Below are positions 1 to 53,935 of a stretch of 64,000 nucleotides of DNA, one piece after another. The stretch comes from an uncultured Bacilli bacterium. GTDB lineage: Bacteria; Bacillota_I; Bacilli_A; RF39; UBA660. How positions within the stretch are numbered: the stretch's first letter is position 1; each line of letters starts with the position of its first letter. The translations under genes and the position numbers were made by a program. The stretch is from contig CANRPB010000001.1 of the NCBI GenBank assembly GCA_947632415.1, positions 19,549 to 83,548 of the forward strand, in the 5' to 3' direction. The notes under the pieces were generated by a model, which worked only from the letters and a program-made list of their open reading frames with translations, had not been told where the DNA came from and made no database searches.

Positions 1-1
1 G

Positions 2-3000
2 ATGAATAAGCAGTAGACCGACCCCAATGAGTTGATGAACACTCTAGAAGATAAGGAAACCGATGCTGTTGACAATCAGACAGATGAAGATACCGATAAT
101 ACTGAAGAGTATGAAGATGAAGTAGATGCTGAAGATGATAATGCTAGTCTGAACCTTGGATTCACCGAAGAGCGTGATTCATTGCAGCGTAACATGTGGA
201 ATAGTGCTGATATTACTACTAAAATACTATTTTGGGTGATACCACAAGATACTGTTACTGGTAATAAACTCAATTACATGGGTTTAACAGATTATGCTAA
301 CCCAGCTTAGATGTATATCAAGTTTACTGAGTTACTACAGGATTGTGCCAGTGAAGAGTAGATGATGGAGATACTGAAAGAGAATGCAGTTAAAGATAGT
401 TCAGTACAGGCTGTATATGAGTACCTTACTTAGGATGATGACCCTGAAGTAAATCAAGCATTACAGAACAAATTCTTCACTTCTACTTGTAGGTATAGAC
501 ATAGCTTTGAGAATACTACTTACGAACAGGAGTTTGATGAATACGGTAATGTAGTTGCTGTTACTGCTAGGAGTTATAATGGTAACATGAATGAAACTAC
601 TACTAAAGTCAGATATGCACTTATACGTCAAATAACTAGTGCTTTAATCAACCGTGCTACTAGACCTGATAATAATCAATATAAGAGTGCTAATGCTAAA
701 CAAGCCAAAGAAGCTATATCTAAACTGATAAATGCTTTAGCTGGCGTTAAGTACAATAAAGGCGAGTTAACTAAGCGATTAGCTGAATTACTTAAGTTAT
801 CCTATGAAGTAAATGGTTTCGGTATGCTTGTAGATGGTGACTATGACTTATCACAGTCTGTAGACATGATTATGAGTTATATCTGGGATGAGAATGGTGG
901 TGTATCTACTGGTTAGGTTGATAATACGGCACTCAGGAGTTTGATAAGTGTATTCAACATCATAAATAACAATGTTACTGGTATTACTGGTGAATCAGTT
1001 AAGAATGATGAAGTTAGTGTTAAGCAGCGTATAAGGAAGATAATTGATGAGAATGTAGAGTTATAGAACTTCTTAAAGAACATTAGTTCTTATGCACCTA
1101 GACAAGCTAGGATGATGTCTTAGAACGGTCCTAAAGGTGTTAGGATATACACTATTGGAGCATATAACTACATCACTAGGTTATTCCAATTATGGACTAA
1201 ACCTATACGTGGTGCATTATCCAATTGGCGAGATGCAATAGCTAAAAACCCATACGCTGGTCATTCAGTTTGGCTAAAGAGCGGTAGATTACCTAAAGCC
1301 AAATTGAATACTCGTCTACAGACTATGACTTCAGATAACTTTAATAGCGCACAATCAGATAAGTATGTTAGTCCTGATGTAGAGCTGATAAATCGTATGG
1401 TTACAGTACTTCAAGTAGACAATTCTGGTAAATGGTTAGGTGGCCATGCATTCCCAGTATTGGCTAATAAGAAGTTCTCTGCTGATTTAACTGGTTTGGT
1501 TATAGAAGCATTAGAAAGACCTGTTCATGCAGTAGCAACCGCAAGTGGTAAGTTTAGTTACGATATAAACATCGGTGCTAAATAGGTGTTTGCTGGTTAC
1601 TTCTTAGATGAAGTAGCTGCAATAAAGGATGCTAAAGCTGCTAGAGATAACTTCATTGAAGTTATTAATCGAGTAAATGGCACCAAACACACTGTTCAAA
1701 GTTTCTCTGAATTAAGTATACCTGAACAGACTAAGTTGCTTACTGCTAGTGAAGCGCAATCGGTTGAAGGCCTTCATGAGATAAACAATGCTCTAAATAA
1801 GTTAGTAGTAACATATCACTTTGAGTCTACTAAGAATGAACCGGTATATGACAAGCAAGGTCGCGTGGTATCATTCAATACTTCTCATATAGACTTACGT
1901 GAAGGAGCTGGTTATGGTCATAGACACTTTACTAATGTAGCAGCTAGGTTAAGTGCTAAAGGTATAGACTTCGATACGTTGGACATCAATAATCCAGATT
2001 TGTTGAATGCTATAGAAACTGAAGTATTACAACCGGGTATAGCTGATACTATAAAAGCAATGGAGTCTAGAGGTGTTAGTAGTTTAATACCTACTAACTT
2101 GGTTAGTGACTACGCTAAGATATACAAATCATCTGACGAATATACCACCGAATTACTAATGTTGGCTACATTTGCTATTAGGCACATGTCTGATATGCTC
2201 GAGTATGAGAAGTTGGTATAGGGTGATATGGCATACTTTGGTAAAGGTGGTAAGCGTTATCGTAAGACAATTGATGGTATGACTAAACGTTACTCAGGAC
2301 CTGTATCTACGTTTGGTTTGAATGCTTCGAAAGGTACTAGACCTATGTCTTTGACAGCTGATGACACATATGATTTGAGTAATAGTAATGTATACCAATC
2401 ACTTACTATATAGACTACTAAGTTGATAGACTACGATGTATTTGAAGGTTTGGTAAATAGGTCATTAGGCTTACCCGTATAGATAGATTATAGCGTAGAC
2501 ACAGAAGAAGGTGCAGTTACTCCATCATTCAGTCATGAGCAACTGTTAGGTGAAGATGGGTTACTTAAGAAAGAAGTACTCAATGGTGCATTTAAAGACT
2601 ATACTGTATTCAGGAAGTAGAATGAAGATGGTTCATACGATGCTAGTGTTGATACTGCAATCGCTAAAAGTATAGTTAAAGACGTATTAAATCGTTATAC
2701 TGGTTATCTGTCACAAAACTATACTGATGCTACCTCGTATATATCATCAACCATGTTTAGGGAATTAAGGCAGCGTAGTGATGATGGTTGGACAGACATT
2801 CAGGAAGCTTGCTGGTTGTTCATGGAACACTACGATAATCTATGGTAGATGTATAATAACCGTGAGCTGACTAATGACTGGAATGCTATGGTTTGGGCAG
2901 CTCATCAGTTAGGTATCGATGATGAGACATTAAATGGGTTTAGGATTGATAGTGATAGACTATATAATCCAGCACATAATTTTAATTCACCTGATAGGCT

Positions 3001-6000
3001 GAATAGCCCTAAACACAGGGAACAGCGTGCTAAGTACCGTGGTAAGATATTAGCTTACTTGGAGGATGAGAATGGCATACCTAAGATAGATACTACACCA
3101 ATGAAGTATCTATACTACGGTAATAAACCGTAGTTTGATACTGATACTCCACTATATATACCTATCTATGACAAGACTGCATTGGTACCAATGTTCAAGA
3201 TATTCACTGAAGATCATGACGCTGAACATCTATATCGATTGATGCATGACTCAAATACGCAATTCGTTAAGTTTGATAGTACTACTAAGACTGGCGGTGG
3301 GTTTAGTTATCAGTTATACGATGAGAATGGTAATTTCAATAGTAATTTGAACTTAGCACCTAGACAGTTACAGTACTTTGACCAGTTAGGTAAACAGCTC
3401 GATACTGATGCTCATACTAACCCGAATAGTACATTGTTGACCCAGCTAACTAAGATCTCAATGCTTAATACTGTCGGTAACATATATTCATTATCTGGTA
3501 AACAGTTAAATGGTAAGCAATTAAATGAGTTATATGCTGCTACGTTTAACTCACTCACTAGAGATGGGTTTGATCGGTTTAAGCGTACATTTGGGTTCAA
3601 TAGCGAAGGTCAACTTGACGAGGAAGGTAGGAGAAAACTGGTAGCTAAATTAAGGAAGATACTTGAAGATTCAGGTGCATCACAATCAGTTATAAACTCG
3701 TTTGATTTAGATGAGAACGGTGATTTTATAACTACACCAGCTCTATTACCTAATGGTAATCAAATATAGTCTAGGTTATTATCTCAAGTAGGTAAGATTA
3801 TAGTTGATACGCACATTAAAGGTTTACCTTTATATCAGGTTGTAAGTGTTGGATTTGATCAAGATCATCCGTTAAAGAAAGGTGTTTCCTTCGATAAGGA
3901 GCTGTTATCGCCTGGTGATATTGATGAGAATGGAAATACAGTCACTAGGATGCAAGCTAGAGTATCTATACTACTGTTCAACGATGTCATCAACGAAGCT
4001 AAGAAAAATGCTAAGTTAAGTAAGAAGTATAATGGTTTAACTAGTTTCTACGATAAACGTAGATTCTTACTTAACAATAAAGATAAGTTACCTTCATTAG
4101 TATATCGTGTGCCTACACAGAGTCAAAACTCTGTAATCCCAATTGACATAGTTGATGTTATGCCAGCATCGCAAGGTGCTGTTGCTCAATTACCTACTAC
4201 ACTTACTGCTTTAACTGGTGCAGACTTCGATATTGATAAACTGTATACTGCAGTATTTAATTATGATATAACTGATGATGGTATTGAGAAAGTAAACTAT
4301 ATGGACAAGTATAAGACATTTGATGACTTAGTTGCCCATATGGACGAACTTAATACTAAACAGAAAGAGAATCTGTTATTGGATATATTCCAATCAGTGT
4401 TGACTAGTGATAGTAATTTACTGCATACTACTGTTCCTCTAGACGTATGTACTGATCCAGTAAAATCGGTTATGACTAAAGAGGTTAAAGTTGAAGGTGA
4501 TAATACAAACCATGACGGATTCTCATTGACACCAGCGCATCAAGCACAAATGCGTGAGCAAAATGCTAATTCTGATACTACAATTGGTCCTATGGCGCTT
4601 AACTCTGTATTCCAATACTATTTGCAAACCACTGGATTAGACTTTATAACTGATCCGTAGTTAGAGAAATTAGGTATACACGGTTTAGGTCATTCATCAT
4701 TGACTGTCAAGGATACTATGCGTATAGCATATTTACTGGATGTTACTTCAGCAATGATTAATGCCTCTGTGGATGCTGCTAAAGACAATTACATTGGTAG
4801 AGCTAATATTAATAGTGGTACTTATGATGTACTTAACTTTTTAATTGCTAGTGGTTTCGATTTGGATACCTTTAGATTCATAGCTCAGCCAGGTGTAAAG
4901 TAGTATGTTTCTGAATAGCTGCGTGGTTCTAAAGATGCAATATTTAAAGTTAAAGCGGATACTGCCGGTGTAGGAAGTGGATTTAGTATTCAACCAGATC
5001 TATTTACTACAGAGAAACTTAAGGCTGAATTATAGAATCCTACTAGAGAGGCTCAACAGTGCTATGTTTCTGCATTTGCATATATTCAATCTATTGCGTC
5101 TAGGTATAGACAAGCTATATCAGTAGCTTAGGTAGATACTAAGAAATATGGTAAGAATGTAACTGAATTAATGGCATTCCTATAGAATGTAGATGATTAT
5201 GAATCAGATTATAACTTAATCTTCTCTAATCCAGATACTCTGTTTGAGAATTCATTCTTAAAAGAGAAGTTAAATGCTATTAGAGATGCTATGGGCATGT
5301 TTAGTGACATATTCTTAGAGAACTCATAGTTGTTTAAGGATGCTAGTACTAGGCTAAGTGATATATTCGGTAAGCGTGGCCCTTATAGTAAACAATTGTT
5401 ACGTAGAGCAGTGCCAAAGCTTAAACAAGCTATCTTTAAGATATTCTTTGATCAGTACATAGTTAATCGTTTCTCTTCTCCAGATGGACAGATAAATTAT
5501 AGTCCGTTATATACTCTATTCTGCGACCCGAAATTATCAGTAGTTGCTAGATATGACCACATAAAGGAACTATGCGAGAAAGAGCATAATATAGGTTCAG
5601 TATTCTTTGAGATAGTCAAATATGCTAGAGCTCGTAAGAACTCAAATGCGCCTAGGTTCTTTGTAGTTAACAATGCAATTACTACAGATCCAAACCTTAA
5701 ATAGGCTGTATAGGATAGTATAGCAGAATTATTCCATAGTGGTAATCCAGAAGTAAGACAATGGATAACTGATGCTGCTGTTATGTAGTTCTATCAGACA
5801 GGTGGTACTGATACCACATCAGGTACTGCAGTCAAATCATCGTTCTATGATATGCTTCCACCACAAGAATTAGGCAACATTGAAGCTAATATGGGTAATG
5901 GTAATACTACATTCAATGAGTTTGTCAAGTCTGGTGACTATTATGGTGACTTAGATCAGTTAGTCGATGAAGCTATACTTTAGCTGTCTATAAGTGATGA

Positions 6001-7507
6001 TGAGTTTGTGCCAGTAGTTAAGACTTACGGTAAAGCTAATTCATTTAACGTATAGTTAATTGGTGATAAGTCAGTAGCTATAGCTCGTAAAGCATCTAAT
6101 AAGCTCAGACGTGACTATATGGGTAGTAGGTATGCTAAATATATCAAAGTATAGACTAGCAGGGAGGAAACTCCTACATTATACGTACTCGGTAATGTGG
6201 TAAGGACTGAAACTACTGATCAAAAAACTGGTGAACTTAAGGTATATTATAATCCAATATACTTCAAGATGAATAAACTTGGGTATAGACAGTATGGTAA
6301 TATATCCAATAGTATACGTGTAGATGGTGCTGTATTCTATGATGAAAATGGTATTCCTTATCGTAGGTCATTATTCAATAAGCAGACTCAAGGCTTGATG
6401 AGTGATAACAGATACCATAGATTTACTGCTTAGAACTTGGCACAGCTTGAAACTGAGCAAGTACAATCTAATGGTGTTAAATTGGCTTACAAAGCTAAGG
6501 ATGAAGTAGTAAATGCATTAACTAAGAATGGTGCTAGATACCAGGTATTTGATGTAGACGAAGTTGGAAATGTGTTATTTGATGCAGATAATGATCCGTA
6601 CAGAGGATACTTTGAAACTGGTAACCATAGAGGTACCCAGTTAGTATTATCAAGGTTATCGTAGGCACCAACTGATACTAATGTTCTAATGGTTAACCAC
6701 GCTAAAGAAGTAGGCGCTACGTTCCAATAGTTAGTTAAAGTTGGTGATGAATATAAATTCATTGGTTCTGATACTGAACTTACTGGTACAGTAACCTTAT
6801 TGTTCAACAATCGAAGTGAAATTCAAGAAGCTGCTGATTAGATATTTAGTAAGTATCCTGGTGTAAATATTGTTAAATTATTTGATTCTACCAATCGAGA
6901 AATCATTTCATTGTCTCGTGGTGGTAAGGTTGGCTCAGCAGATAATAGTAGATTAAGATATAGTGCACAATTTACTAGAGAAGATGCTATAAATCATCCT
7001 AATTTACTATACATATTTACTGATAATACCGATAGAACATCTGGTGGTTAGGAATATGGTGAAGGTTGGTATAAAGACAAGTATGGCACTGGTGGGTTTG
7101 GTAGCAGGCGTAATCCAACTACTGCTGTAGTACGTGGTTTGCCTAATGCAGCTCCTATATCAACTATGAAGTGGTTCTATAAAAATCACGGTCTAAGCGA
7201 TTATAAAGCTGCAAGATGGACAGATGCAGATATGAATCAAGTAATGAATGTTGTTAGTGATGAAGTTAGAGATATATTGAATCTATGGGAATCTGGTAAG
7301 TTTGACGCTGTAGTATTCCCGAATGAAGACTTTTTATTAAATAGCTTGATCGCTGGCATAACTGAAACTCGTACGCCTCAATTGTATGCATATTTTAAAG
7401 CGGTGAAGGAATTTCTCAGTGACACTATAACCGGTAAGGTTGGCGATATGTTATCGGATATAAACAACAAGAAAGATTCTGAAGACCAAAAGAGTAAAGA
7501 GTGTTAA
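2..7507 (+). CDS. Giant virion-associated protein with RNA-polymerase-like DxDxD motif. Continuous only with TAG read as sense. May start at ATG 2 or upstream of the window.
   Basis: 13 track ORFs (32..310 through 7139..7507) all lie in frame 2. Gaps read codon by codon (310-587, 916-1304, 2413-2849, 3769-3950) contain only TAG stops. The frame closes at TAA 7505-7507. DFDID motif at 4223-4237. Confidence 0.8.
4223..4237 (+). other. DFDID (DxDxD) candidate metal-binding motif of the crAss-like virion RNA polymerase family
   Basis: Codons gac ttc gat att gat in context TALTGADFDIDKLY. The assignment to the phi14:2 gp66-type RNAP family is from memory of published work, not from a search. Confidence 0.6.
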
Positions 7508-7510
7508 TAT

Positions 7511-10500
7511 ATGTGCCCAAATGTGAATAATAATGAAGTTGTTGAACAGTTTAACTAGATTGTTCAACAACTCGGTGGGGAACCACTTAGTATTGAAGAG
7601 TTTAAGTCTTCAGAGCTGAGAAGTAAGAGAACTGGTAAAAACTACGCTGCTATGGAGGCTGCCTACCGTATATGGAATTATATGAACGGTGAAGTAACCG
7701 ATGCTAGTACAGCTATAAACCAGTATACACAATCATTAAATATACCAGTTAGATAGAAAGTAGCTGAGGTTAACCGTCGTAGTCCAATAACTAATGCTGC
7801 GGAACATGCAGCATCTACAAGGATTTCAAGCTTACTAGCTGATTTATACCCTGAATTATCAGTTGAGTATCGAAGATCATTAGAAGGTGGTAATTTAGGT
7901 GAAATAGACTTAGGAGCATTAAAAGTTTTAGTTGATTTCGTGAACGGTAGGGCTGATACCCTACCACACGAATATGCTCACTACTATTATGCTATGTTCT
8001 AGAACTCAAAGATAATGAAGGAAGGTATCAATGTCTTTGGTTCTGAAGAAGCATTAGTATCAGCTATAGGTAGTAGAGTTGCTGAGTTAGATGGTAAACA
8101 GCGTAGATGGTACCAAAAGTTTTTAGACTGGATTAAGTCATTCTTTAGTACTGAATTACGTAAGAAAGCATTATTAGGTGCTATAACTGATGCATTCCTT
8201 GAAAGACGTGATTTAGGTAATAGAATTTATGAATTATTTGGTGTAAGACATCAAGCCGCAAGTAACTTAAGCGTAGATGAAGCATAGTTAGCTTTAAGTA
8301 AAATGGCTAGCGATTTAGTATTTGATGAAGCATCACATACTTACTCGTTACGTGGTAGCAGCATAGCATTAACAGCAGTTAGTGATTTAAAGACTAAACT
8401 CGGCTATAATAATTACGATGATACGCTAGAAGATGCTGACTAGAAAAAACTATCAAATGACGCTAGAACACGTGGTACAATGATCCATGCTGTACTTGAG
8501 GATACTTTCAATGGTAAGTTTAATCTCAGTAGATACTCTAATATCAGTCAAAGAGCTGCTATCAAACTGAATCAGATAGCTGAGAAACTATTGGTAGACT
8601 ATGATTTCGTAGCATCAGAAGCAATGATGTACGATGAAAGTATTCAAGCTGCTGGTACCACTGACTTGATACTACGTGATAAGAAAACTGGTGAATATGT
8701 AGTACTTGACTATAAGACTAAACTAGTAAAGTATAATGGTAAAGAAGAAAAACCAAATGGTAAAAGATTTTGGGGATTCTCTTATGCTACTAGTAAGAAC
8801 AAAGGTCTTAAGTCTAGCTCAGATGCATATAATTTCCAGACTAAGCTGTACCAGAAAATGTTATAGAAGCTTGGTTTGAATGTTACTAAGCGGGGTATAA
8901 TACCTTTAGTGTATGAAGTAGATGAACGAGATGGTAGTTGGTAGATAACTGATATTAATACTAGCAAGATATTTGGCTCTGATATAGACGAGACTGGTGG
9001 ATGGTCTGGTATACCGATTAATGATAAGAAAGCAGGTGTACAGTGGATGTCTGAAGATACTACAGTTAATAGGGATATTAATGCTAAGTTATATGAAGAT
9101 TATTCTGATTTTGCTACACCTGAAGCAGGTAAGCGATTTGTAGCTGCTATGGATGATGCATTCAATATCATCGCCAAGATACGTAATAAACTAAATGCTC
9201 AGATTGCTATAGCTACACGTCGTGATCGTAAATCAGCTGCATATAGGGGTAGAGTTGCATTGGCTAGAGTAGATAGTTCATCAGAATTAGATGCTATGCT
9301 AGCTTATATGCAGTATACTCAAGATTAGCTTAATAGAATGGTAGAAGTCCTATAGGATTTATCCAAGCAAGGTGAGAATGCTCAGTGGTCATTAGCTAAA
9401 TTAGCTTAGTACTATCAGATAGCTGAATCAGTTAATGTGCTTAATAATATAAGTAGTTTCTTAGCTGGTAATGAAGACTTATTAAATAAGTCTGAAGTAT
9501 CACAGTTGACTAGAGCAGTAAATCAACTATAGACTTCAGTAAGTATCATTAAAGGTTACTATGATAACTAGGGTAAGAGACTATACTTGAATGTTATATC
9601 TAAAGGTGTAACTGCTTATAGGCAGCGATTGATTGAAAGGTAGGAAGCTAAGTATACTGAAGAACACCCACAGTAGAAAGGTGAGTCTGGTAAAGCATTC
9701 GTAGCTAGACGTAAGGCTTACATGGACTAGTGGATATAGGATAATGAAGATTATCTAACTAAAGAATAGAACAAGTGGTTAGAAGCTTAGACTAGGATAG
9801 CTGATAAGAGCTTTGAAGCTAATGCTATAGGTTAGTATTTCTCTTCAGTATATGAGTCAACAGACCCGTTTGTCCAATCAATGGTTAGGATGTACGATGA
9901 AGGTATGGAAGAAGTAAACCATAAGCGTATATTCATGATGAATAGACTTAATAAGTTAGTTAAGCAGTACTATAGTGATTACGGGTATAACTCATTATCT
10001 AACTTCCGTAAGATGTACGATGATTTCGTTGAGATAACTGAAGACGGTAAGTGCTATTTAGTTGGTAATGTTAGTGCTTAGTTTTTAAATGCTCGAGAAA
10101 AGTTTGAATATGAGCTAAAAGGTTAGACTACACTTACTGCAGAGGAACGTAGAAAGGCTAGAAGGGAATGGTATGACGAGAATAGCCCTGTGAGCGATTT
10201 AGAGGCTTATAGCGAGGACTTCTCTCATTAGCTGGAGGGTTACCTTACCGAGTTAATAGAGTCCGAAAATGAGCGTTAGAAGCTGTTTAGGAACATACTA
10301 GATAACTTCAATAAAGGTAAGCTGAAAGCGAGTTGGTAGAAGTTCATATTTGATAAGAATGGACCTGTAGCTAAGGATAATAAGATTAATCAATATGAAC
10401 TATGTGATTTCTTACTTGAGTTGTAGCGTACTCTAGATATTAATCACAGGAAACCTAGTGATAAGTATGCTAATGAGAAGTATGATAAGATGATGCAACT

Positions 10501-12355
10501 TGATGAGAATGACAGTAAGCGTAAACTATGGGAAGCATTATCAGAGATAAGTAATGATGAATATCAATAGTATAATCTACCATTACCACTGTAGTTACGT
10601 GGTAGACTACCGTCTATAGTTAAAGGTAAACTTGAATAGGCTGTAACCCATTCAGTTGGTTCTGCTGTTAAATTGGGTATATAGGATGCATTCTGTTTAA
10701 TGGAGGATGACTATGAACTGATACATGGTGAGTTCTATGATGAAAATGGCAATAAGATATATCAAGTACCTATGCCGTATACTGGCAAGCGTATAACTGA
10801 AGATAAATAGTCATTCAACTTACCTGATATATTCCTTAGATATTATGAAGCTGCTAACACTTATAAGGTTAAGCGTAACTTAGAAGAGTATATAAAATAT
10901 ACTTAGTCTATATTAGCTACTAGACGTACTTATGAGAATGATTAGGTTAACTACGGTAATCCTGAAGAAGGTACTAAGTATGTTGGTAATACTAAGAAGT
11001 TATTTGATGCTTGGGTAGATCAGGTGTTCTATAATGAGCGTATAAAAGGTAGGGGTTAGCTTAATATAGGTAAGTATAAGGTAGAGAAAGCATTGATTTT
11101 GAAGGCTATAGCTAAATTCTCATCAACTAAAGCGATGGCTGGTAATATTGTATCAGCGGTTAATAACATATTAGTTGGTGATGCCCACGGATGGGAAGAA
11201 GCTGTAGCAGGTAAATATATCGATCTTAAGAGTTATCGTAAGGCTCATAAGATGTTCATGAAAGCTATACCTTAGATAATATAGGATGCATTCAGAGTTA
11301 CGCCAGAAAATAAAGTTAATAAGCTGTGTTAGTGGTTCCACATATTTGATGGTAGTGAAGGTGTTAGTTTACGTGGTGCTATGTCTAATAGTCCTGGTAA
11401 CTATATCTATGCATTAACTGCTTTGGGTGAAAGATGGATATAGGGTAAGTTCGTTATAGCTTACTTCTTGAAAATGAGAGCTAAAGATAAGGATGGTAAT
11501 AACCTTGGTTCTATGTGGGATTTTGTTGATTTTGATGAGAATAACCAATTAACAGTTAATGATTAGAGAGTAGCTAATTTTGATGCTGGTACTCAAGCTA
11601 AGGTTTCATTAATGCTACGTAAAGTATCTATGGGACTTAATGGTAACTATGATGGTTAGAGGGCAGCTGTAGCAGTTGAAAGTAATGCTTTAGGCTGGTT
11701 TGGACTTGCTTTAAGACGATGGATAGAACCGTTTGTAGCTAGACGTTTAGGTCGTGAAACACATGATGATACACTAGGTACTGTCAATACTGGTATGTAT
11801 CGTACTTTCCGTAGATATATGTGGAATGATGCTAGGTTGGAATTGTTATAGCATATGCCTGAATTCTTAAAACATTTCTTTGGAGTATAGGCTAAAGATG
11901 TTAATGAACTTAAGCGTAACTTTAGGAAATGGGCTGAATTACATGACTGGGAGAAAGCTAACATTAAGCGTACTTCTGTTGAACTTGGTTTAGCTATGCT
12001 GGCATTGTTGATTTTTGCTGGACTTGGTGGTAGTGGTGGAGATGATGACCAGAATAATTTCACTAGGTTTGTCAAATATTAGTCATATAGACTTTATTCT
12101 GATTTGACTTTTGTTGCTAATCCTGTTTCCTTTACTAATATTTTCCGTGACCCATTCCCTGCACAGAAGCTTATTACTGATGTAGCTAGTGTGGTTAATT
12201 AGTTAACTGATCCTACCGAAGAGTATTAGAGTGGCAATCATCTATTTGATAATAAACTGATTAACAAGACAGTTAAGTTGATACCAGGATCTAATCAGAT
12301 TTATCGACTTCAAAATATTCAAAACGAAATTAATTACTTTACTAGAGGAAGATGA
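7511..12355 (+). CDS. Second giant protein (about 1614 codons) with HExxH, PD-(D/E)XK-like and C-terminal hydrophobic segments. TAG read as sense.
   Basis: ATG 7511 lies 3 nt after the upstream TAA. 5 track ORFs share frame 2. All gaps I read (7511-8015, 8287-8480, 8866-9047, 9328-9881, 10081-11093, 11275-12355) contain only TAG. Stop is TGA 12353-12355. HEYAH at 7967-7981. TDLIL...VLDYKT...FQTKLYQ in 8480-8866. Confidence 0.8.
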
Positions 12356-31770: not shown

Positions 31771-31799
31771 AATTTAATTGATTTAAATTGTTAATAATG

Positions 31800-31873
31800 T
31801 AGTGAGTAGGAGATTCGAACTCCTTATCTCTTGGTAAAATCCAAGGCTTCACTCCACGCAAAGCTTACTCACT
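31800..31873 (-). tRNA. tRNA-like cloverleaf with a 6-nt anticodon loop (AUUUUA). Isotype undetermined.
   Basis: - strand: AGTGAGT AA GCTT TGCGTGGAGTG AAGC CTTGG ATTTTA CCAAG AGATA AGGAG TTCGAAT CTCCT ACTCACT A. There is no position-26 nucleotide, and the loop is one nt short. Confidence 0.45.
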
Positions 31874-32100
31874 AATCCATCAAGTTCTAACATTTTACAG
31901 GGTCGAGAGCTTGCAACAACACCAAACCTATTTATTACTCGCGGGGATACGACGAGGCTCACCTCTGTTGCTAGACGGAGCTACCCCAGACTTTACTTAC
32001 GCTACTAAGCGGGTATAGTCAGTAACATAACTTGTATTGCCAGTTATTCGCATTATTGACCTATTCTATTTCACATTGTCGCCGTCAAATCCATTTTACC

Positions 32101-32214
32101 CCCGTAGAATGCGTTTTAAGGCTATTTTAAGGCGATTCTAGACACTTTTGAGGTTGACTGGATGATTTATATCAATTTGCATCTAAAATGTCTTAAAATG
32201 GCTTAAAACGCTTA
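32101..32214. repeat. Copy A of the three-copy element. It contains an internal inverted repeat.
   Basis: GCGTTTTAAG (32111-32120) is the reverse complement of CTTAAAACGC (32202-32211). 32120-32154 aligns to 37429-37462 with few mismatches. Confidence 0.6.
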
Positions 32215-32740
32215 ATTATGAAAAATTTAATTAGAATAGTGGAGGTAGAGATCTCCGACAATCTCGTCCGTACGACTGCTCCATAGACCTAACAGTCAAT
32301 TGTGGATATGTAGCCGACCAAAGCTACATACCCTATGGTCTTGTAAATGGTTAGTTCACTATATACTGATCTTGATGATATACGAATGATGACAGCTTTT
32401 ATCCTATACACTGTGATTCGAAGATTCACATCATTCAGTCTATGCTTGATACCACGACTAAAGCTTTTCTCTATTTCTAGAGGACAATCTTATTGTCGCG
32501 ATCTCAGACTTATGATCAGTAGTTCATTGTGGTCCCTCATAACTGATTCAAAGATACTGTATGAGACCTGTTAATTCAGGTCTGTAATGCGACTCAGGCC
32601 CTGTGCGCAATGCAACTTCCGACTCACGCATTAAAGTTATTGATTCAAAGATTCTAAACTTGGAACTTCTTTTTTTATGAAAGTCACTTCAGTGACTTGA
32701 GTAAATAAGCCACGCTAGTGGACTTTTATTTTTAATCGAA

Positions 32741-33211: not shown

Positions 33212-33544
33212 TTTGATTAAGCTTTAATTGATTTAACAATAATTTATTTAACACTCTGTTAGTACCAAATTAAAAGACCTACCCTATTTATTTGTATTGC
33301 TTATTCATAGGAAACCCATTTCCTTCTTTCATAAACTGTTTATAAACAGGTTGACCGTTGTATAGTCCATTGTACTCTTGCATATAGCTTCCATTAGGGT
33401 TCTGGTTATTTGTAGGTCTTTATGTTGATTGGATTCACCACATTATTAAGTTTTAGTTAATAATATTATATAGTTTGGGTAGATACTCTGGCGGAATATC
33501 TACCTCTAACTATCATAGCAACAATAATGAGTATCACCTCAATA

Positions 33545-34615: not shown

Positions 34616-34968
34616 AATTTGATATTATTTGATTAACGGCGTGTGCAAGAGCATTTTGCACAATTTTACATTTGTTTCAGAATAAGTACTAGTAATGCTC
34701 ACTAGCGTTAGTGTAACAATAAACACCATAAAACACATTTACTTTAGTTCTTGATACTCACTAATTACGAATAGCAGGTATAGTAATCAGCTATACCTTA
34801 TCACGGCATGATTTTAACGCCTGCACTAATACTTATCTAAAAGGCTAGCACTTTTGATAAGATATGAGCCCCACATGTTTGTTACTGATTCTCACAGTGA
34901 AAGCGTGTATACTATTCTCACGAACCATATACACCATACGTAATTATGAACAAAAGCATTATTAAAGC

Positions 34969-41721: not shown

Positions 41722-41847
41722 ATGAAGAAATTTAATATCACAATTGATTTAACAAAAGATGCTGAAGATGTTCTTGAACAGATTGAAGAAGCATCTAAGC
41801 AGTTAAAGAAGAAAACACTCTGGCAGAGAATTAAGAGTTGGTTTTAA
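41722..41847 (+). CDS. Small protein (41 aa), candidate
   Basis: MKKFNITIDLTKDAEDVLEQIEEASKQLKKKTLWQRIKSWF. Confidence 0.35.
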   Translation: MKKFNITIDLTKDAEDVLEQIEEASKQLKKKTLWQRIKSWF

Positions 41848-41930
41848 AGCTTAATCGGCTGTGTTAAGCTATATTGAAAGCAGCTGCTCCCTTACGTGGT
41901 GGGGAGGGTAAATGAGTACACCACGTGCAT

Positions 41931-42008
41931 TTCCGCTTGATGTATGATTGCTTAGCATAATTCCCTCTAAAGGAATAGGACCTGGAGCAGAACCGGGAGC
42001 GGGGACCA
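41931..42008 (+). tRNA. Candidate amber-suppressor tRNA (anticodon CTA) with a non-canonical T-loop and an encoded CCA
   Basis: TTCCGCT TG ATGT ATGATTGCTTA GCAT A ATTCC CTCTAAA GGAAT AGGA CCTGG AGCAGAA CCGGG AGCGGGG A CCA. All four stems pair (some G-U). U33 and A37 flank CTA. The T-loop lacks TTC. Confidence 0.45.
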
Positions 42009-42019
42009 ATTAAAATGTT

Positions 42020-42292
42020 ATGAAGTATAAGATTATAGGCGATCCGTTACCGTACAAGGAGGTGGGTGTTATATATGAAAATTCTAAACGTATCTGTGAT
42101 GCTGATGAAGGTTGGGCTTCTATAATTAAGTGCGATGATGAGTATTACAGACTAGACGAAGTTGACGGTTTGCATATTCACCCTGTTATGATAACTGATT
42201 CCAGTGCTGGACCAGCTGTAAATGAAGATGAACCAGAACACATTAGACGATTAAGACAGCACGGTTATTGGGATACTTCAGAAGATAATTAA
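42020..42292 (+). CDS. Hypothetical protein
   Basis: 90-aa ORF between the two tRNAs. Confidence 0.6.
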   Translation: MKYKIIGDPLPYKEVGVIYENSKRICDADEGWASIIKCDDEYYRLDEVDGLHIHPVMITDSSAGPAVNEDEPEHIRRLRQHGYWDTSEDN

Positions 42293-42427
42293 GATAGTGA
42301 AGCGTGGCGCGAACGTAACGTAACCTCCTAAGTCACTTACTGTTAATCAACAGTGAACACAGCTAATGATGGACCTAATCGTAAGTAGGCTAGTTTCCCG
42401 GTATCTAGGACACTAAAACCGGGTCAC

Positions 42428-42499
42428 TGCGGGGTGGAGAAGAGACATCTCGTCTGGCTCATAACCAGAAGATCGCAGGTTTGAATCCTGCCCCCGCAA
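42428..42499 (+). tRNA. tRNA with anticodon CAT (Met, or Ile2 if modified)
   Basis: TGCGGGG TG GAGA AGAGACA TCTC G TCTGG CTCATAA CCAGA AGATC GCAGG TTTGAAT CCTGC CCCCGCA A. Full cloverleaf. The D-loop lacks GG and the T-loop is TTTGAAT. Confidence 0.8.
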
Positions 42500-42517
42500 C
42501 AATCAAGATATTTTACC

Positions 42518-45500
42518 ATGGTAGACTTTAATAAGTAGATTAAACAAAGCGATAAATTTCGTTAGGCAGCCCTATAGTTCATAACTACAGGGCATTATTG
42601 TACGTACCCAGCTGGTTCATCAGAATACTTCAAATTCTGGGACTAGGAAAAGGATAGAAGTATTAATGGTTATACTGCTGATGATGGTGACTACATCACA
42701 GGGTATAACTATTTTTATTTAAATTATTGTCCTATTCAACGACTGGTATATACTAAGAATGAGAAGACAGGTAAGATAAAAAAGAGTCGTGAAGTATCAT
42801 TCCCTGATTTTTGGGATTATGACTATTACTTCTTTTAGGCTTTATAGGATGCAGAAGATTAGGGTAAACATATGTGCGCATTGAAAAGCCGTAGAAAGGG
42901 GTACTCGTACAAAAATGCCGCAATGGCTTGTCGTAATTATTATCTTATACCCAATAGTAAAACATATATTTATGCGTCTAATAAGCAGTATTTAACTGAA
43001 GATGGTATCCTTACTAAAGCATGGGACTATATGAACTTTATAGATAAGAATACTGCTTGGGGTAAGAAACGCTCGGTGAACACACAGATGCGTAAAAGAG
43101 CTGGTTTCTTTACTAGGGATGAGTATGGTAATGAAGTTGAATTAGGTTATAAGTCTGAAATAATTGGTGTTACATTGAAAGACAACCCAGACGTTGTTCG
43201 TGGTAAAGCCGGTAAGCTAATCATATTTGAGGAAGCTGGGTCGTTTAGCGAACTGGGTGCTGCTTGGCAAATAGCGAGACCATCAGTAGAGCAGGATGGT
43301 GTGGCATTCGGTACTATGATAGCGTTCGGGACAGGTGGCGATGATAACAGCCACTTCTTTACTTTGAAAGATATGTTCTATCACCCTGAAGGTTATAATT
43401 GCGTAGGGTTTAAGAATATATGGGACGAATCTGTTACCACTGAAGAGTGTGGGTTCTTTATACCGTAGTACACTAACATGGACTTCCGTGATACTGATGG
43501 TAACAGGATGTTCATGGATGACGATGGTAACACACTGCGTAAACGGTCCTTAGAGTATGTACTAGAAGAAAGACGTAAAGTAATAGAGAACGCGACTAGT
43601 AATGAAACTATTGACCGTTATGTGGCAGAGCACTGTTTAACCCCTAGTGAGGCATGTCTGGAGTTTAATGGGAATATCTTCCCAAAGAAGGAATTACAAG
43701 AGCAATTAAGTTTACTTAGGACTAACACTAGATTATAGAACCATAAATAGGTCGGTGATTTAGTATGGGAACCTACCGGGGAACTTAAATGGATTATTAA
43801 GAAAACAGGAGATATTAATCATTACCCATTACGATAGAATGAGGACCCAACTGGTTCTATAGTTATATGGGAACACCCAAATAAGGAAGCTAGCTTAGGT
43901 CTATACATTGCTGGTATCGACTCTTATGACTATGACGAGTCTAGTACTACTTCATTAGGTTCATGCTTCATTTATAAACGCATTCAAGGTATTGAAGCTT
44001 ACTCTGATATAATAGTAGCTGAATACACTGGTAGACCCAAGACTGCTGAGGATTTCTATGAGAATGTTAGAAAGTTGTTGATATACTATAATGCTAGGGC
44101 AATGTATGAGAACCAGAACAAAGGTATATTTGCTTACTTTACTAATAAGCATTGTGACTACTTACTTGCTGATACCCCAGATATAATTAGTGACATTATA
44201 AAGGATTCCAAAGTAAATCGTAAGAAAGGCTGTCATATGACCAAGTAGATTAAACAGTGGGGTCAAGGGTTGATTAAAGACTGGTTAAACGATGCTAATG
44301 CGGACGGTAAAAAGAATTTATATAACGTTATGTCAGAACCACTATTAGAGGAATTGATCTCATATAATGATGTAGGTAATTTCGATAGATGTTTATCGCG
44401 AGGAACGCTAATTACAACTAACAGAGGTGATATTCCAATTGAAGAGGTTAGCACTACCGATTTCGTGTTGACTGATAAAGGTAATTATAAGCAAGTCATA
44501 CTTACTGACAGGCATATACATTCGGGTAAAATGATCACGTTAGCTTATTCTGGAGATTATTAGAAGCTGATTTGTACAGACAATCATCCGATATTGGTAA
44601 AATACACCGATAAGCTATCACATAAATTTAGAAATGTCGAAACACTAGAAGAAACATTTTTAAGAGCAGATAGTTTAAATTACAAATATTAGTTTGCGCT
44701 ATTACCGAAGAGACATATAGAGGACAAGCCAAGAACGATAAATGATCGAATACTGTATGTACTTGGGTGGATAATGGGTGACGGATATTGCCATCCGAAT
44801 AGTAATGAGGTAAAGATAACGTATCAGTTAAACCAATTGAAATGCGCTGAGCAATGCAAATAGATAATTGAAGAATTTGATGGTTCTGTTCCGTGCAAGA
44901 TAATGAGAGACAAAACCAAGAATTGTTATCGATTAGTCGTATATTCTAAGAAATTGCATACTTTAGCTATGCAGTTCGGATGTGTTCCGAATAACAAAAA
45001 AATAAATTATACGGTATACAACAATCACAAAGATTTAATTCCGTTCATCTTAGGCTTACTAGAAGCAGATGGGCATTAGAAATATAATACCGCATATGAC
45101 GGCCACGCAAGAAACGCAATCGAGATAGCTACCATATACGAGGAGTTACTAAGACAATGCAGGTAGATATTATTGGATAACAATATATATTCAACTATCC
45201 GTGAAGTTAAAGCAAGAAACGGCAGACGTCAGGTAAATCTTTAGATAAGCGGTGAATACGTTAGTAAATTATTATCTTATTATACGCCAAACGATGGAAC
45301 CGCAACATGCCCAATATTTTCATATAAGTTTAAACAAGTCTATTGCAATCATACGAAGTCAATTGTCTTATAGGATAATCGAGGTTTTTGGGTTCCTATT
45401 AAGCTATTAGAAAGTAACGAAGCATCTGAAACTGTATATAATATTGTAGTGCAAGATGACCATACTTACGTTGCTAACGGTATTACTACCCATAATTGTA

Positions 45501-45661
45501 TGGCTCTCATGCAAGTGATGATATACCGTGAAGAATTGTATAATGTTAAGGTAAAAGAAATTAAAAAGGAAAATCGAGAAAGAGTACTCTTCGATGGACC
45601 TATATTCACACAAGAATGGTTCCGTGACGACGGAATTGATTAGCAAACATATATGTTTTAA
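42518..45661 (+). CDS. terL: Terminase large subunit, interrupted by an intein. TAG read as sense.
   Basis: ATG 42518 is in frame with track ORFs 42872.., 43478.., 44270.., 45449... FPDFWDYDYYFF, KSRRKGYSY (P-loop-like), LIIFEEAGS (Walker B), IAGIDSYD. Closes at TAA 45659-45661. Confidence 0.8.
44390..45496 (+). mobile_element. Intein (369 codons) with a LAGLIDADG homing-endonuclease domain in TerL
   Basis: Starts at Cys (CLSRGTLITT) and ends ...VANGITTHN followed by Cys. Block B is TDNHP. LAGLIDADG motifs are LGWIMGDGY and ILGLLEADGH. Contains 7 in-frame TAG. Confidence 0.8.
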
Positions 45662-51945: not shown

Positions 51946-52944
51946 ATGGATAACGGAATTTTAAACAATCTTTAGCTGTACCGTGGAAAATGGTTCAGCG
52001 ATTTGATCGACACCAACAAGATCAGCGCTGCTTCACAACAGACTCCGTACCAAGTTGCAACAGTTTTGTCCTATGTTTTCGGTACTAAAGATGGTGGCTA
52101 TAGTACTTCTCTGGACATGCTTACTGGTGGTCTTGGTAACGTTATGACGATAGATCAGCCGAGCTGGGAATGGAATGTGCTCGTTGATCAGGACAGAGCA
52201 ATCACAATTAGAGATGCAAAATGGCAGGGCAAAAATGTAAGCAGTACCACATTAGCAGGTATTGCTAATACGCCGATTCAACTATGGCTTGAAGACGATT
52301 ACTTTGGACCTACTGCTGTGTTGGAACTGGATGATAAAGAATATCAAGTACGTGTATCTGGTGCACCGTATCAAGATGGAAACCTGTATGTATATACAGT
52401 ATTCATTGCTGATGGTAACCCTACGTCTTATATCCCTGGTGACCTGTTGCAGCCTGGTTGTCAAGTATCACGTCTTGCTTCTGCTGTAGAAGAATACAGT
52501 GAAGAGGGTGACATCCTGAACTACAACACTCATTTCAAGATGAGAAATTACCTGACTACTATTCGTATCAACTACGATATTACTGGTTCTGCTTACTCTA
52601 CGGTAATGGCAATTGCTATGCAGGATCCTAAAACAGGTAAGAAATCTTATCTCTGGGCTGATTACCAAGAATGGGTTGCACTGCGTGAATGGTACAAGCG
52701 AGTAGAGAGAATGTTGGTTTACATGAAAACTAACGTTAACAAAGATGGTAGCTGTAACCTCAAAGGTTCCAATGGCAGACCCGTTTTTATTGGGAGCGGT
52801 TTGTTGGAGCAGATTGCACCGTCTAATAAAAGATATTATACTCATTTGACTGCAGAAATACTTGAAGACTTCTTGTTCGATCTGTCTTATAACGTACTCG
52901 GTACGAATGAAAGAAAATTCGTTGGTTTTACTGGTGAAATGGGT
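51946..52944 (+). CDS. Major capsid protein, exon 1 (single in-frame TAG at codon 10)
   Basis: ATG 51946 is in frame with track ORF 52003... Only one TAG (51973-51975) in the whole gene. The exon end is inferred. Confidence 0.6.
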
Positions 52945-53935
52945 TAATTGATAGCTCCTTGTAACAGTGATGTTACAAGCAAATCTACTTAATTGCTGGA
53001 AAATCGTTAATAGATTTAAAAACATAGATTAACATTTAAATCATAGTTCATGGAAACTAATCGACAATCAGCAGCTAAAACACTGCACAGACCTGTAAAT
53101 GGATTTGAATATAGGTATTCCATCACAACTGATGGTGAAGTTTATGATAATCATAGAAAAATATATCTAAAACCGTTTGAAAATAGAGTTAACCTAATCG
53201 GGATTAATGATAAAGTCTATTCAATTAGAATCGAAAAGTTACTTGCAAGTACTTTTAAAGACATTAATCTGGTAGACTATGAAGAAGTAAAAGATCATCC
53301 TGGTTACTACATAAATAGATGCGGTTCACTCTACAACAGTAAGACAAAAAGATTTATAAAGACAACTGTTAAGAACGGTTACTTAAGGTATAACGTGGAT
53401 TGGAAAGTTAGACAAGTTCATAGAGTGTTAGCAATCCAATTCATACAAAATCCAATGAATTATAATTCAATCGACCATGTAGATTGCAATAAGCTAAACA
53501 ATAGTTTAGATAATCTAGAATGGGTAGATATAGAAGAAAATAAAAAGAGAGCTTACGATAATGGATTAACTAGAGTAGTAAAATCAATGGTTACATTCAT
53601 TAAAGATGAAGAAAGTTTCTCAATATTGGGTTTAGAAAATGCTAGTAAAATATTTGGGATAAAGAAATCAACCTTGTGTACAATGATAAAGCGATACGGT
53701 AATAAAGATATGGTAATCCCAAGTGGTTCTATGAAAGGTTACAAAATCATAACTAACAAGTGCAAATGTAAAGTTCAACGACTATCCGAAATGGAGTAGA
53801 GTTCAAGTGAACTCGAAATGGTAGATTACTCAATAGAGTAAAAGATATAGTCTAATCACTTAGGAAACTAAGTGGGGATTCTAGAACGATCACAGAATCC
53901 CAACTCAAACTAACGATTTGAGTTAAATGTAAATG
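52945..53935 (+). mobile_element. Group I-like intron carrying an HNH endonuclease gene. Boundaries are inferred.
   Basis: It splits the capsid ORF. Joining T52944 to T53936 gives in-frame ...TGEMG|LREFDRV.... G53935 could be the terminal G. Hairpins include CACTTAG GAAA CTAAGTG, GGGATTCT..AGAATCCC and CTTGTAAC..GTTACAAG. Long-range AATCTAC/GTAGATT pairing. I could not identify P1/IGS. Confidence 0.5.
53050..53841 (+). CDS. HNH homing endonuclease (NUMOD4/HNH_3-like)
   Basis: YSITTDGEVYD, then IDHVDCNKLNNSLDNLEWVDIEENKK. No internal TAG. The first stop is TAG 53797-53799. If that is read through, the ORF ends at TAA 53839-53841. Confidence 0.75.

Follow-up and report, generated by a model that had tools for sequence, protein, structure and literature searches.

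A family of putative amber-suppressor tRNAs with an atypical elbow in TAG-recoded crAss-like phages

The 64-kb stretch of contig CANRPB010000001.1 analyzed here (positions 19,549 to 83,548 of the contig; hereafter the window) belongs to a crAss-like phage (Suoliviridae-like, 35% GC). At positions 41931-42008 on its plus strand it carries a 78-nt candidate tRNA gene with the anticodon CUA, the discriminator A73 and an encoded CCA, identified by ARAGORN and by covariation within a family of related genes. This gene is probably a functional amber suppressor of the phage that translates TAG as glutamine and that derives from a canonical amber-suppressor tRNA with a CTA anticodon (Sup-CTA) by remodelling of the elbow. 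Its transcription, processing, glutaminylation and use by the ribosome, as well as the geometry of the elbow, are what we infer from comparison of the sequences.

The candidate tRNA and TAG recoding in the phage

The sequence at 41931-42008 can be folded into a cloverleaf. The 7-bp acceptor stem (TTCCGCT/AGCGGGG) includes the pairs U1•G72 and U2•G71 and is followed by TG, a 4-bp D stem (ATGT/GCAT) that closes the 11-nt D loop ATGATTGCTTA (41944-41954), a single A, a 5-bp anticodon stem (ATTCC/GGAAT) that closes the loop CTCTAAA (41965-41971) with the anticodon CTA at 41967-41969, the variable loop AGGA, and a 5-bp T stem (CCTGG/CCGGG) that closes the T loop AGCAGAA (41986-41992). The discriminator A (42005) is directly followed by the genome-encoded 3' CCA (42006-42008). 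All the cloverleaf features that a first-pass annotation had described, namely the stems, the anticodon loop, the two terminal G-U pairs, the discriminator and the CCA, are present in the sequence, and so are the T loop AGCAGAA and the 11-nt D loop without GG. The canonical tRNA core is kept, with a 7-nt anticodon loop containing U33 and a purine at position 37 and with U8, A14 and A21. The D loop lacks G18G19 and holds a GC inside UGC. The T loop lacks T54-Psi55 and A58; when compared with the consensus T54-Psi55-C56-R57-A58, only C56 and R57 match, while A54, G55 and G58 deviate. The CTCTAA of the anticodon loop and the G55-C56 of the T loop are invariant across the family described below.

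ARAGORN, one of the checks suggested in the first-pass annotation, calls exactly 41931-42008 as a tRNA with the anticodon CTA. The label given by the program, tRNA-Pyl, follows from the anticodon alone. No ARAGORN call was obtained when the window was shuffled 40 times with its dinucleotide composition preserved (2.56 Mb in total), indicating that the call is beyond chance. The cloverleaf has a predicted energy of -17.7 kcal/mol, which is 0.2 kcal/mol above the minimum free energy of -17.9 kcal/mol.

The TerL gene of the window has about 75% DNA identity to those of cr4_1, cr52_1 and cr115_1 (Crassvirales, Suoliviridae, Loutivirinae). The TAG-sense translation assumed in the first-pass annotation was borne out. 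The longest open reading frame (ORF) of the window increases from 645 to 2501 amino acids when TAG is read through. The minus-strand replication block (12.3-38 kb) has almost no in-frame TAG, and the plus-strand genes (1-12355 and 42518-64000) contain up to 44 in-frame TAG per gene. The TerL gene (42518-45661, plus strand) has 20 in-frame TAG and an intein, is the first heavily recoded gene downstream of the candidate, and would be a client of the suppressor. Its start lies 510 nt downstream of the candidate tRNA, in agreement with the position just before TerL that had been assigned to it. The candidate is thus located near the 5' end of the TAG-rich late block, a placement that follows the pattern of 303 genomes (Mgcod preprint).

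When four late proteins, TerL and the portal protein among them, were aligned with those of relatives, the TAG positions of the window corresponded to Gln 191 times, to TAG 99 times, to Glu 51 times and to Lys 39 times. This alignment indicates that TAG is a sense codon in the window phage and that it most likely codes for Gln. The assignment agrees with metaproteomics of crAss-like phages, where TAG was read as Gln (PMC9523058).

A conserved family in the suppressor slot

Other copies with the odd T arm and with different stems turned up in loci without an ARAGORN suppressor call. A pattern scan for the T arm that allowed any anticodon gave 10 genuine matches, all with CTA, and 8 chance matches in GC-rich coding DNA. 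In the reciprocal scan, for the D arm without any constraint on the T arm, all 13 matches had the odd T arm. When the loops only were searched for in a metagenome collection, 9 matches were obtained, all on crAss-like contigs and from the human gut wherever the source was stated. The three scans yielded 11 distinct sequences (subtype 1). A census anchored on TerL added a second subtype (L133 and L136), with the same D arm and the T arm CCCGU-GGCCGAU-GCGGG, so that the family comprises 12 distinct sequences on about 30 human-gut contigs. Among the contigs with the atypical gene are IMGVR_UViG_3300012983_000004, 3300045988_056974, 3300029906_000004 and 3300045988_023458, as well as OWZM01000042.1 and OOYV01000027.1 of the ENA.

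The 11 subtype-1 sequences were aligned with MAFFT for covariation analysis. Every one of the 231 pair cells was a standard pair, and double compensatory changes were detected in 12 of the 21 pairs. The covariation score was 0.629, compared with 0.214 for shuffles, and none of 500 shuffles reached the observed value. When the 3' partners were slid by 1-3 columns, at most 50% of the cells were paired. The same cloverleaf was obtained independently with RNAalifold. With subtype 2 and three proposed tertiary pairs included, 286 of 286 cells were paired and 14 of 24 pairs were compensated. The invariant or nearly invariant positions are U1•G72, U8, A14, the D-loop pattern ..GC.UA, CUCUAA in the anticodon loop, A-R-G-A in the variable loop, N-G-C in the T loop, and A73. 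The D loop contains UGC in 10 of the 12 variants and GGC in L014, L015 and subtype 2, and the T loop is AGCAGAA, AGCGAA or GGCCGAU. Such a pattern indicates that an RNA of tRNA shape with the anticodon CUA is under purifying selection and is not decaying.

A covariance model of the family, trained with the window sequence included, found exactly one copy per locus; its single match in the window was the candidate, at 94.5 bits, and canonical suppressors scored 35-49 bits. An exact 26-mer of the candidate had no match in IMG/VR. Comparison of the window tRNA and its flanks with GenBank phages by blastn gave no match, and with an L001-type query only the flanks and the canonical gene of cr60_1 were matched; none of the annotated phage records deposited in GenBank matched the atypical tRNA itself in these searches.

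The order of elements around the gene is constant in relatives and consists of a 176-aa ORF, an ORF of 41-45 aa, a hairpin, the tRNA and TerL, often with a tRNA-Met gene in between. The slot of the tRNA is occupied in relatives by a canonical Sup-CTA that has GG in the D loop and GTTCGA in the T loop and is annotated as tRNA-Gln in cr4_1 (KNV51_gt03), cr52_1 (KNV46_gt01) and cr60_1 (KNV49_gt02). The 3' end of the tRNA in this slot is ACCA, usually followed by A/T-rich sequence such as ATTAAAA. In the window, the candidate occupies the slot of the canonical Sup-CTA and the flanks are shared. The conserved 41-aa ORF (41722-41847, plus strand), which precedes the hairpin and the tRNA in relatives, served as a synteny marker, and the conserved 9-bp hairpin TACGTGGTG...CACCACGTG (41893-41927, plus strand) ends 3 nt before the 5' end of the tRNA. 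In all 17 loci compared, whether canonical or atypical, a hairpin of 6-9 bp with a covarying sequence ends 1-8 nt upstream of the tRNA; it is probably part of the tRNA precursor or an expression signal. A second, interleaved upstream helix that would form a pseudoknot with the hairpin was rejected, as it was not significant in per-sequence shuffles.

The flanks of L001, which has the atypical gene, are 91.5% and 94.9% identical to those of cr60_1, which has the canonical gene, and the two tRNAs are 72.9% identical. Between L001 and L016, the upstream flank is 98% identical and the tRNAs 71%. Sister genomes with 91-98% identical flanks thus hold either the canonical or the atypical form, a distribution that, judged from sequence comparison, is cassette exchange. 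Within the atypical family the tRNA is better conserved than its flanks, as in the window and L034, with 88.5% identity in the tRNA and about 74% in the flanks. Neighbour genes specific to the atypical loci were not found; all those tested were shared with canonical loci, except for a 90-aa ORF.

The occupancy of the slot was determined in the best 80 TerL-related IMG/VR loci, 76 of which had enough upstream sequence. All these loci are TAG-recoded, with 4-9 TAG in the first 440 aa of TerL; many of the contigs come from one large study, and the counts are not independent. A Sup-CTA was detected by ARAGORN in 62 of the 76 loci, of which 53 combine GG in the D loop with the T loop TTCRA, 8 are of a 91-nt type with a long variable arm, the T loop UUUGACU and no GG, and 1 has the T loop AUCGAUA. 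ARAGORN found no suppressor in the other 14. Subtype 1 of the atypical family was present in six of them, subtype 2 in two, other elbow variants (the L139 type and L146) in four, and a gene with an insert of about 270 nt in its anticodon loop in one; in the last locus no candidate was found. The slot therefore holds a member of the atypical family or another noncanonical Sup-CTA in 13 of the 14 loci without an ARAGORN call.

The other Sup-CTA genes with an odd elbow in this slot are those of L139, L145 and L149 (for example, L139 3072-3148), L146 (3370-3444) and L010 (776-849), with the T loops GUUGGCA, UGCAAUU and GGAGGCA, respectively, and with D loops that all lack GG. From these sequences, elbow remodelling seems to be recurrent in this phage group. 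The gene with the insert is that of L143 (about 3400-3750), in which the Sup-CTA appears to be split after CUCU. The insert has a weak match to group I introns (21.3 bits, E = 0.0035 on 551 nt), and L143 may contain an intron-bearing suppressor tRNA gene.

Origin of the elbow and alternative explanations

One canonical Sup-CTA of the census shares its D stem (GUGU..GCAC) and its whole anticodon arm (CAACU CUCUAAA AGUUG) with atypical members. In a joint alignment, the canonical D-loop UGG is opposite the atypical UGC, and the canonical T-loop UUCGA is opposite AGCAG. On the basis of the shared arms and this alignment, the atypical family is taken to derive from an ordinary Gln-type suppressor of crAss-like phages through rebuilding of the elbow only. 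Retained in this descent would be all four stems, the core nucleotides U8, A14 and A21, the anticodon loop, A73, CCA and the weak pair 1-72. The D loop would have changed from UGG to UGC and the T loop from UUCGAAU to AGCAGAA, presumably with a replacement contact between the loops. The two kinds of crAss suppressor accordingly have in common the slot, the hairpin, the anticodon CUA, a 1-72 pair that is weak or mismatched, A73, the encoded CCA and a position ahead of TAG-rich late genes. They differ in that the canonical Sup-CTA has the D loop UGG and the T loop UUCGAAU, whereas the atypical family has no GG and odd T loops.

The suppressor would be transcribed near the start of the plus-strand late block and would be charged by the host, most likely with glutamine. 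It would then decode the TAG codons that occur in frame in the genes for TerL and the portal protein and in other late genes.

In a normal tRNA, the elbow is the stack A58-G18-R57-G19-C56. Its exposed pair, G19-C56, is what ribosomal protein L5, the L1 stalk, the A-site finger, RNase P and the CCA-adding enzyme recognize (PMC4810234). In the atypical family, the D-loop and T-loop changes always occur together, and the comparative data indicate that the atypical elbow is a conserved, selected feature and not decay. Both loops contain an invariant GC dinucleotide, indicating that some loop-loop pair is probably kept. The D-loop 5'-UGC-3' is complementary to G55-C56-A57 of the T loop, and in subtype 2 GGC is complementary to G55-C56-C57, which corresponds to a switch from a U-A to a G-C pair. 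A kissing helix of three Watson-Crick pairs that joins the D loop to the T loop possibly replaces the canonical contact. Against such a helix, two of its pairs never vary and a single compensatory event was seen, and its third pair does not agree with the two members whose T loop has 6 nt (AGCGAA). The more specific proposal of a distinct, selected elbow that works on the ordinary bacterial ribosome, in which the kissing helix replaces G18•Psi55, G19-C56 and T54•A58 and the change is adaptive, is tentative and rather unlikely. If it were true, the remodelled elbow could evade host factors such as tRNA-directed defence nucleases, TruB, TrmA or quality control, or could alternatively tune the timing of the code switch.

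Several observations weigh against a functional suppressor. The near-universal elbow elements T54, Psi55, A58 and G19 (or G18, depending on the numbering) are missing. The Rfam tRNA covariance model (RF00005), another check suggested in the first-pass annotation, gave no match to the candidate even at E ≤ 10, whether on 1.1 kb or on 98 nt. At its gathering threshold (29 bits), this model reported the atypical gene in none of the 11 loci that bear the variants; the same scan did report the neighbouring tRNA-Met and a tRNA-like element, and the canonical suppressor of cr60_1 scores 53.8 bits. The minimum free energy of the single sequence is not better than that of shuffles (z = +0.53). The CCA is encoded in 10 of the 12 variants and mutated in 2. 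A second suppressor could also be present in the third of the genome (about 35 kb) that lies outside the window, but this is unlikely. As a single sequence, the candidate has the secondary structure and the core of a tRNA and lacks the two elbow signatures and a score with the Rfam model. This could not decide the matter, and the comparative data were therefore required.

The mutated 3' ends are ACTA in L032/L048 and ACAA in L049, instead of ACCA. For these variants to function, a tRNA with the remodelled elbow would have to be a substrate of the CCA-adding enzyme of the host.

The concern that standard predictors may miss such a tRNA was justified, as none of the variants was reported with Rfam and ARAGORN detected 2 of the 11 subtype-1 variants, only those of the window/L034 type. 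Because tRNAscan-SE relies on covariance models, it would probably miss the atypical genes, too. The related worry of the first-pass annotation, that the candidate might be a false positive, was removed by the conserved family, the covariation and the synteny. The amber-suppressor reading itself gained support from the suppressor slot, the conserved and covarying family, and the lack of a canonical Sup-CTA in the 64-kb window. In every feature that can be judged from sequence, the candidate qualifies as a phage Sup-CTA.

A chance cloverleaf, with the ARAGORN call as a false positive, would be compatible with the missing Rfam match and the unremarkable folding energy. It is the least credible of the alternatives and is already refuted by the comparative data, since neither the synteny, the family and its covariation nor the absence of calls in the shuffled sequence is compatible with it. 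Another improbable explanation is that the gene is a decaying relic of a canonical suppressor and that TAG is decoded by a suppressor outside the window or by a host factor. The loss of the canonical elbow nucleotides and of the Rfam match, the folding energy and the partial coverage of the genome by the window would fit a relic, and L010, whose genome makes hardly any use of TAG, has a Sup-CTA with another odd elbow. However, complete pairing with 14 compensated pairs, an invariant anticodon loop and two invariant novel loops are unlike a pseudogene, and within the family the flanks are less conserved than the tRNA. The genomes with the atypical gene are also as TAG-rich as those with the canonical one (5-7 TAG per 440 aa of TerL). 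No other tRNA with a CTA anticodon was found in the window by ARAGORN, permissive Rfam searches or the family model, and no canonical Sup-CTA accompanies the atypical gene in any atypical locus examined. The complete 100-kb genome of cr60_1 has a single Sup-CTA, in this slot, and no tRNA lies in the region of cr60_1 equivalent to the genome portion not covered by the window. Among 303 complete phage genomes of code 11/15, two Sup-CTA genes were present in only 8 (Mgcod preprint).

It is likewise quite improbable that the gene encodes a tRNA-shaped RNA with a non-decoding role, such as a nuclease decoy, a processing or regulatory element, or a primer. The noncanonical state of the elbow that is read by the ribosome and RNase P could be explained in this way, and the tRNA is flanked by a conserved hairpin and a conserved structured RNA. 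Such a role does not account for the invariant CUA in a canonical 7-nt loop with U33 and A37, or for the weak 1-72 pair, A73 and the mostly retained CCA. Moreover, the gene replaces the canonical suppressor in the same slot in genomes that need TAG decoding, and the scaffold was never found with another anticodon when the T arm was searched for with the anticodon left free. A pyrrolysine-type tRNA, or insertion of an amino acid other than Gln at TAG, is very improbable. The ARAGORN label, the CUA anticodon and the absence of G18G19 and T54-Psi55-C56 are the points of likeness to tRNAPyl (the product of pylT; PMC1851642). The anticodon stem of that tRNA is 6 bp long and its variable loop 3 nt, a single base separates the acceptor stem from the D stem, and the D loop has 5 nt; G73 and G1-C72 are its identity elements and U54-A58 is kept (PMC1851642). 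The atypical family, in contrast, has a 5-bp anticodon stem, a 4-nt variable loop, two bases separating the acceptor stem from the D stem, and a D loop of 10-14 nt. Identity with tRNAPyl was therefore rejected on five hallmarks, namely the anticodon stem, the variable loop, the base at position 8/9, the D loop, and G73 with G1-C72, in place of which the family has A73 and U1•G72. The alignment of TAG with Gln and the metaproteomic assignment (PMC9523058) also argue against another amino acid. No aminoacyl-tRNA synthetase, release factor or amidotransferase was present among the four large standard-code proteins tested.

The functional suppressor with a remodelled elbow can also be compared with two known kinds of tRNA. 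The supE suppressor of Escherichia coli is a Gln-type tRNA with a CUA anticodon that is charged by the glutamine system of the host, and a weak first pair is typical of tRNAGln. The atypical family shares with supE this weak first pair and the Gln-type reading of UAG that is proposed for it. It differs in having A73, different 2-71 and 3-70 pairs and a remodelled elbow, whereas supE has G73 and a canonical elbow. Metazoan mitochondrial tRNAs whose D and T loops interact in a noncanonical way also lack G18G19 and T-Psi-C and still decode (PMC4810234; PMC2777451). These tRNAs often have truncated arms and function with coevolved mitoribosomes and RNase P without the motifs that read the elbow, whereas the atypical tRNA must work with the standard bacterial ribosome and RNase P and has full-length arms and an otherwise canonical core. 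The armless mitochondrial type was ruled out, as both arms are of full length and the GC of the loops allows pairing.

Neighbouring elements and significance

Directly downstream of the suppressor, a 90-aa ORF without TAG is located at 42020-42292 (plus strand). It had no Pfam or PHROG match and no homologue at the same position in the other loci compared, and searches of the neighbour genes against Pfam and PHROGs gave nothing informative. The ORF is followed by a conserved noncoding element of about 131 nt (42297-42427, plus strand), which lies between the suppressor and the tRNA-Met gene. RNAalifold predicted five helices from five loci, with 12 of 27 pairs compensated, and the helices are separated by the invariant single-stranded blocks AACGUAA, CCUAAGUCACUUA, ACAGCU and AUCGUAAG. 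The element had no match in Rfam. The adjoining tRNA-Met(CAU) gene (42428-42500, plus strand; 61.9 bits with Rfam) has the T loop UUUGAAU, in which C56 is replaced by U, and the D loop AGAGACA, in which G19 is replaced by A; the lack of GG and the T loop TTTGAAT had both been pointed out in the first-pass annotation and were confirmed. The tRNA-Met of relatives has the canonical GG and UUCAAAU, and the change looks like a compensated tertiary pair, from G19-C56 to A19-U56.

In some relatives, a 103-nt tRNA-like element with a large internal insert (34-35 bits with the Rfam tRNA model) is located directly upstream of the slot. It is found at 24065-24167 of L051 (cr60_1), 5552-5654 of L001 and 2960-3063 of L139, is not called by ARAGORN and is absent from the window.

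Elsewhere in the window, a tRNA-like gene at 21923-21994 (minus strand) scores 44.7 bits in the permissive Rfam search and is called Pro(AGG) by ARAGORN. Its 3' end and the start codon of the DNA polymerase gene (20070-21929) overlap, and the equivalent in cr60_1 is a 58-nt tRNA match (L051 2302-2359). At 31799-31873 (minus strand), ARAGORN reports a "tRNA-???" with a 2-base anticodon, which adjoins a match to permuted tmRNA at 31997-32299 (minus strand; 34.1 bits, below the gathering threshold of 47); a tmRNA and a tRNA-Leu are annotated at the equivalent place in cr60_1. The early region also contains a RAGATH-9 RNA (33272-33432, minus strand; 140.5 bits) and a Hatchet ribozyme (34806-34904, minus strand; 83.1 bits), with a weak RAGATH-20-like match nearby (32500-32581, minus strand). 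RAGATH-7, -9 and -20 and Hatchet are present in the same region of cr60_1. In the late gene block, two group I intron matches below the gathering threshold of 50 bits, at 52939-53104 (plus strand; 27.9 bits) and 53705-53874 (plus strand; 44.4 bits), lie around an ORF at 53050-53841. The intein of TerL has Hint and LAGLIDADG homing-endonuclease motifs, and the gene is about 1.2 kb longer than in cr60_1.

TAG-recoded phages without a detectable suppressor have been reported repeatedly. Yutin et al. 2021 (PMC7886860) proposed noncanonical tRNAs for such phages. Borges et al. 2021 found a suppressor in only 40% of the genomes with recoded TAG and suggested tRNAs that escape prediction. Noncanonical tRNAs were also suggested in the Mgcod preprint, in which 78 of 303 genomes had no suppressor, and in a 2026 Crassvirales preprint on recoded phages in which no suppressor was detectable. 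A 2023 review described the same incongruence without this explanation. No description of such a noncanonical suppressor was found in the literature searched, the coverage of which was incomplete, so that an earlier description is possible.

The atypical family provides a concrete, conserved case of the proposed undetectable suppressor, together with a covariance model that finds the family, and it helps explain some of the TAG-recoded gut phages that seemingly have no suppressor tRNA. It is also a natural test of how much of the universal elbow bacterial translation can spare, and the atypical tRNA is possibly useful as a scaffold for orthogonal suppressors.

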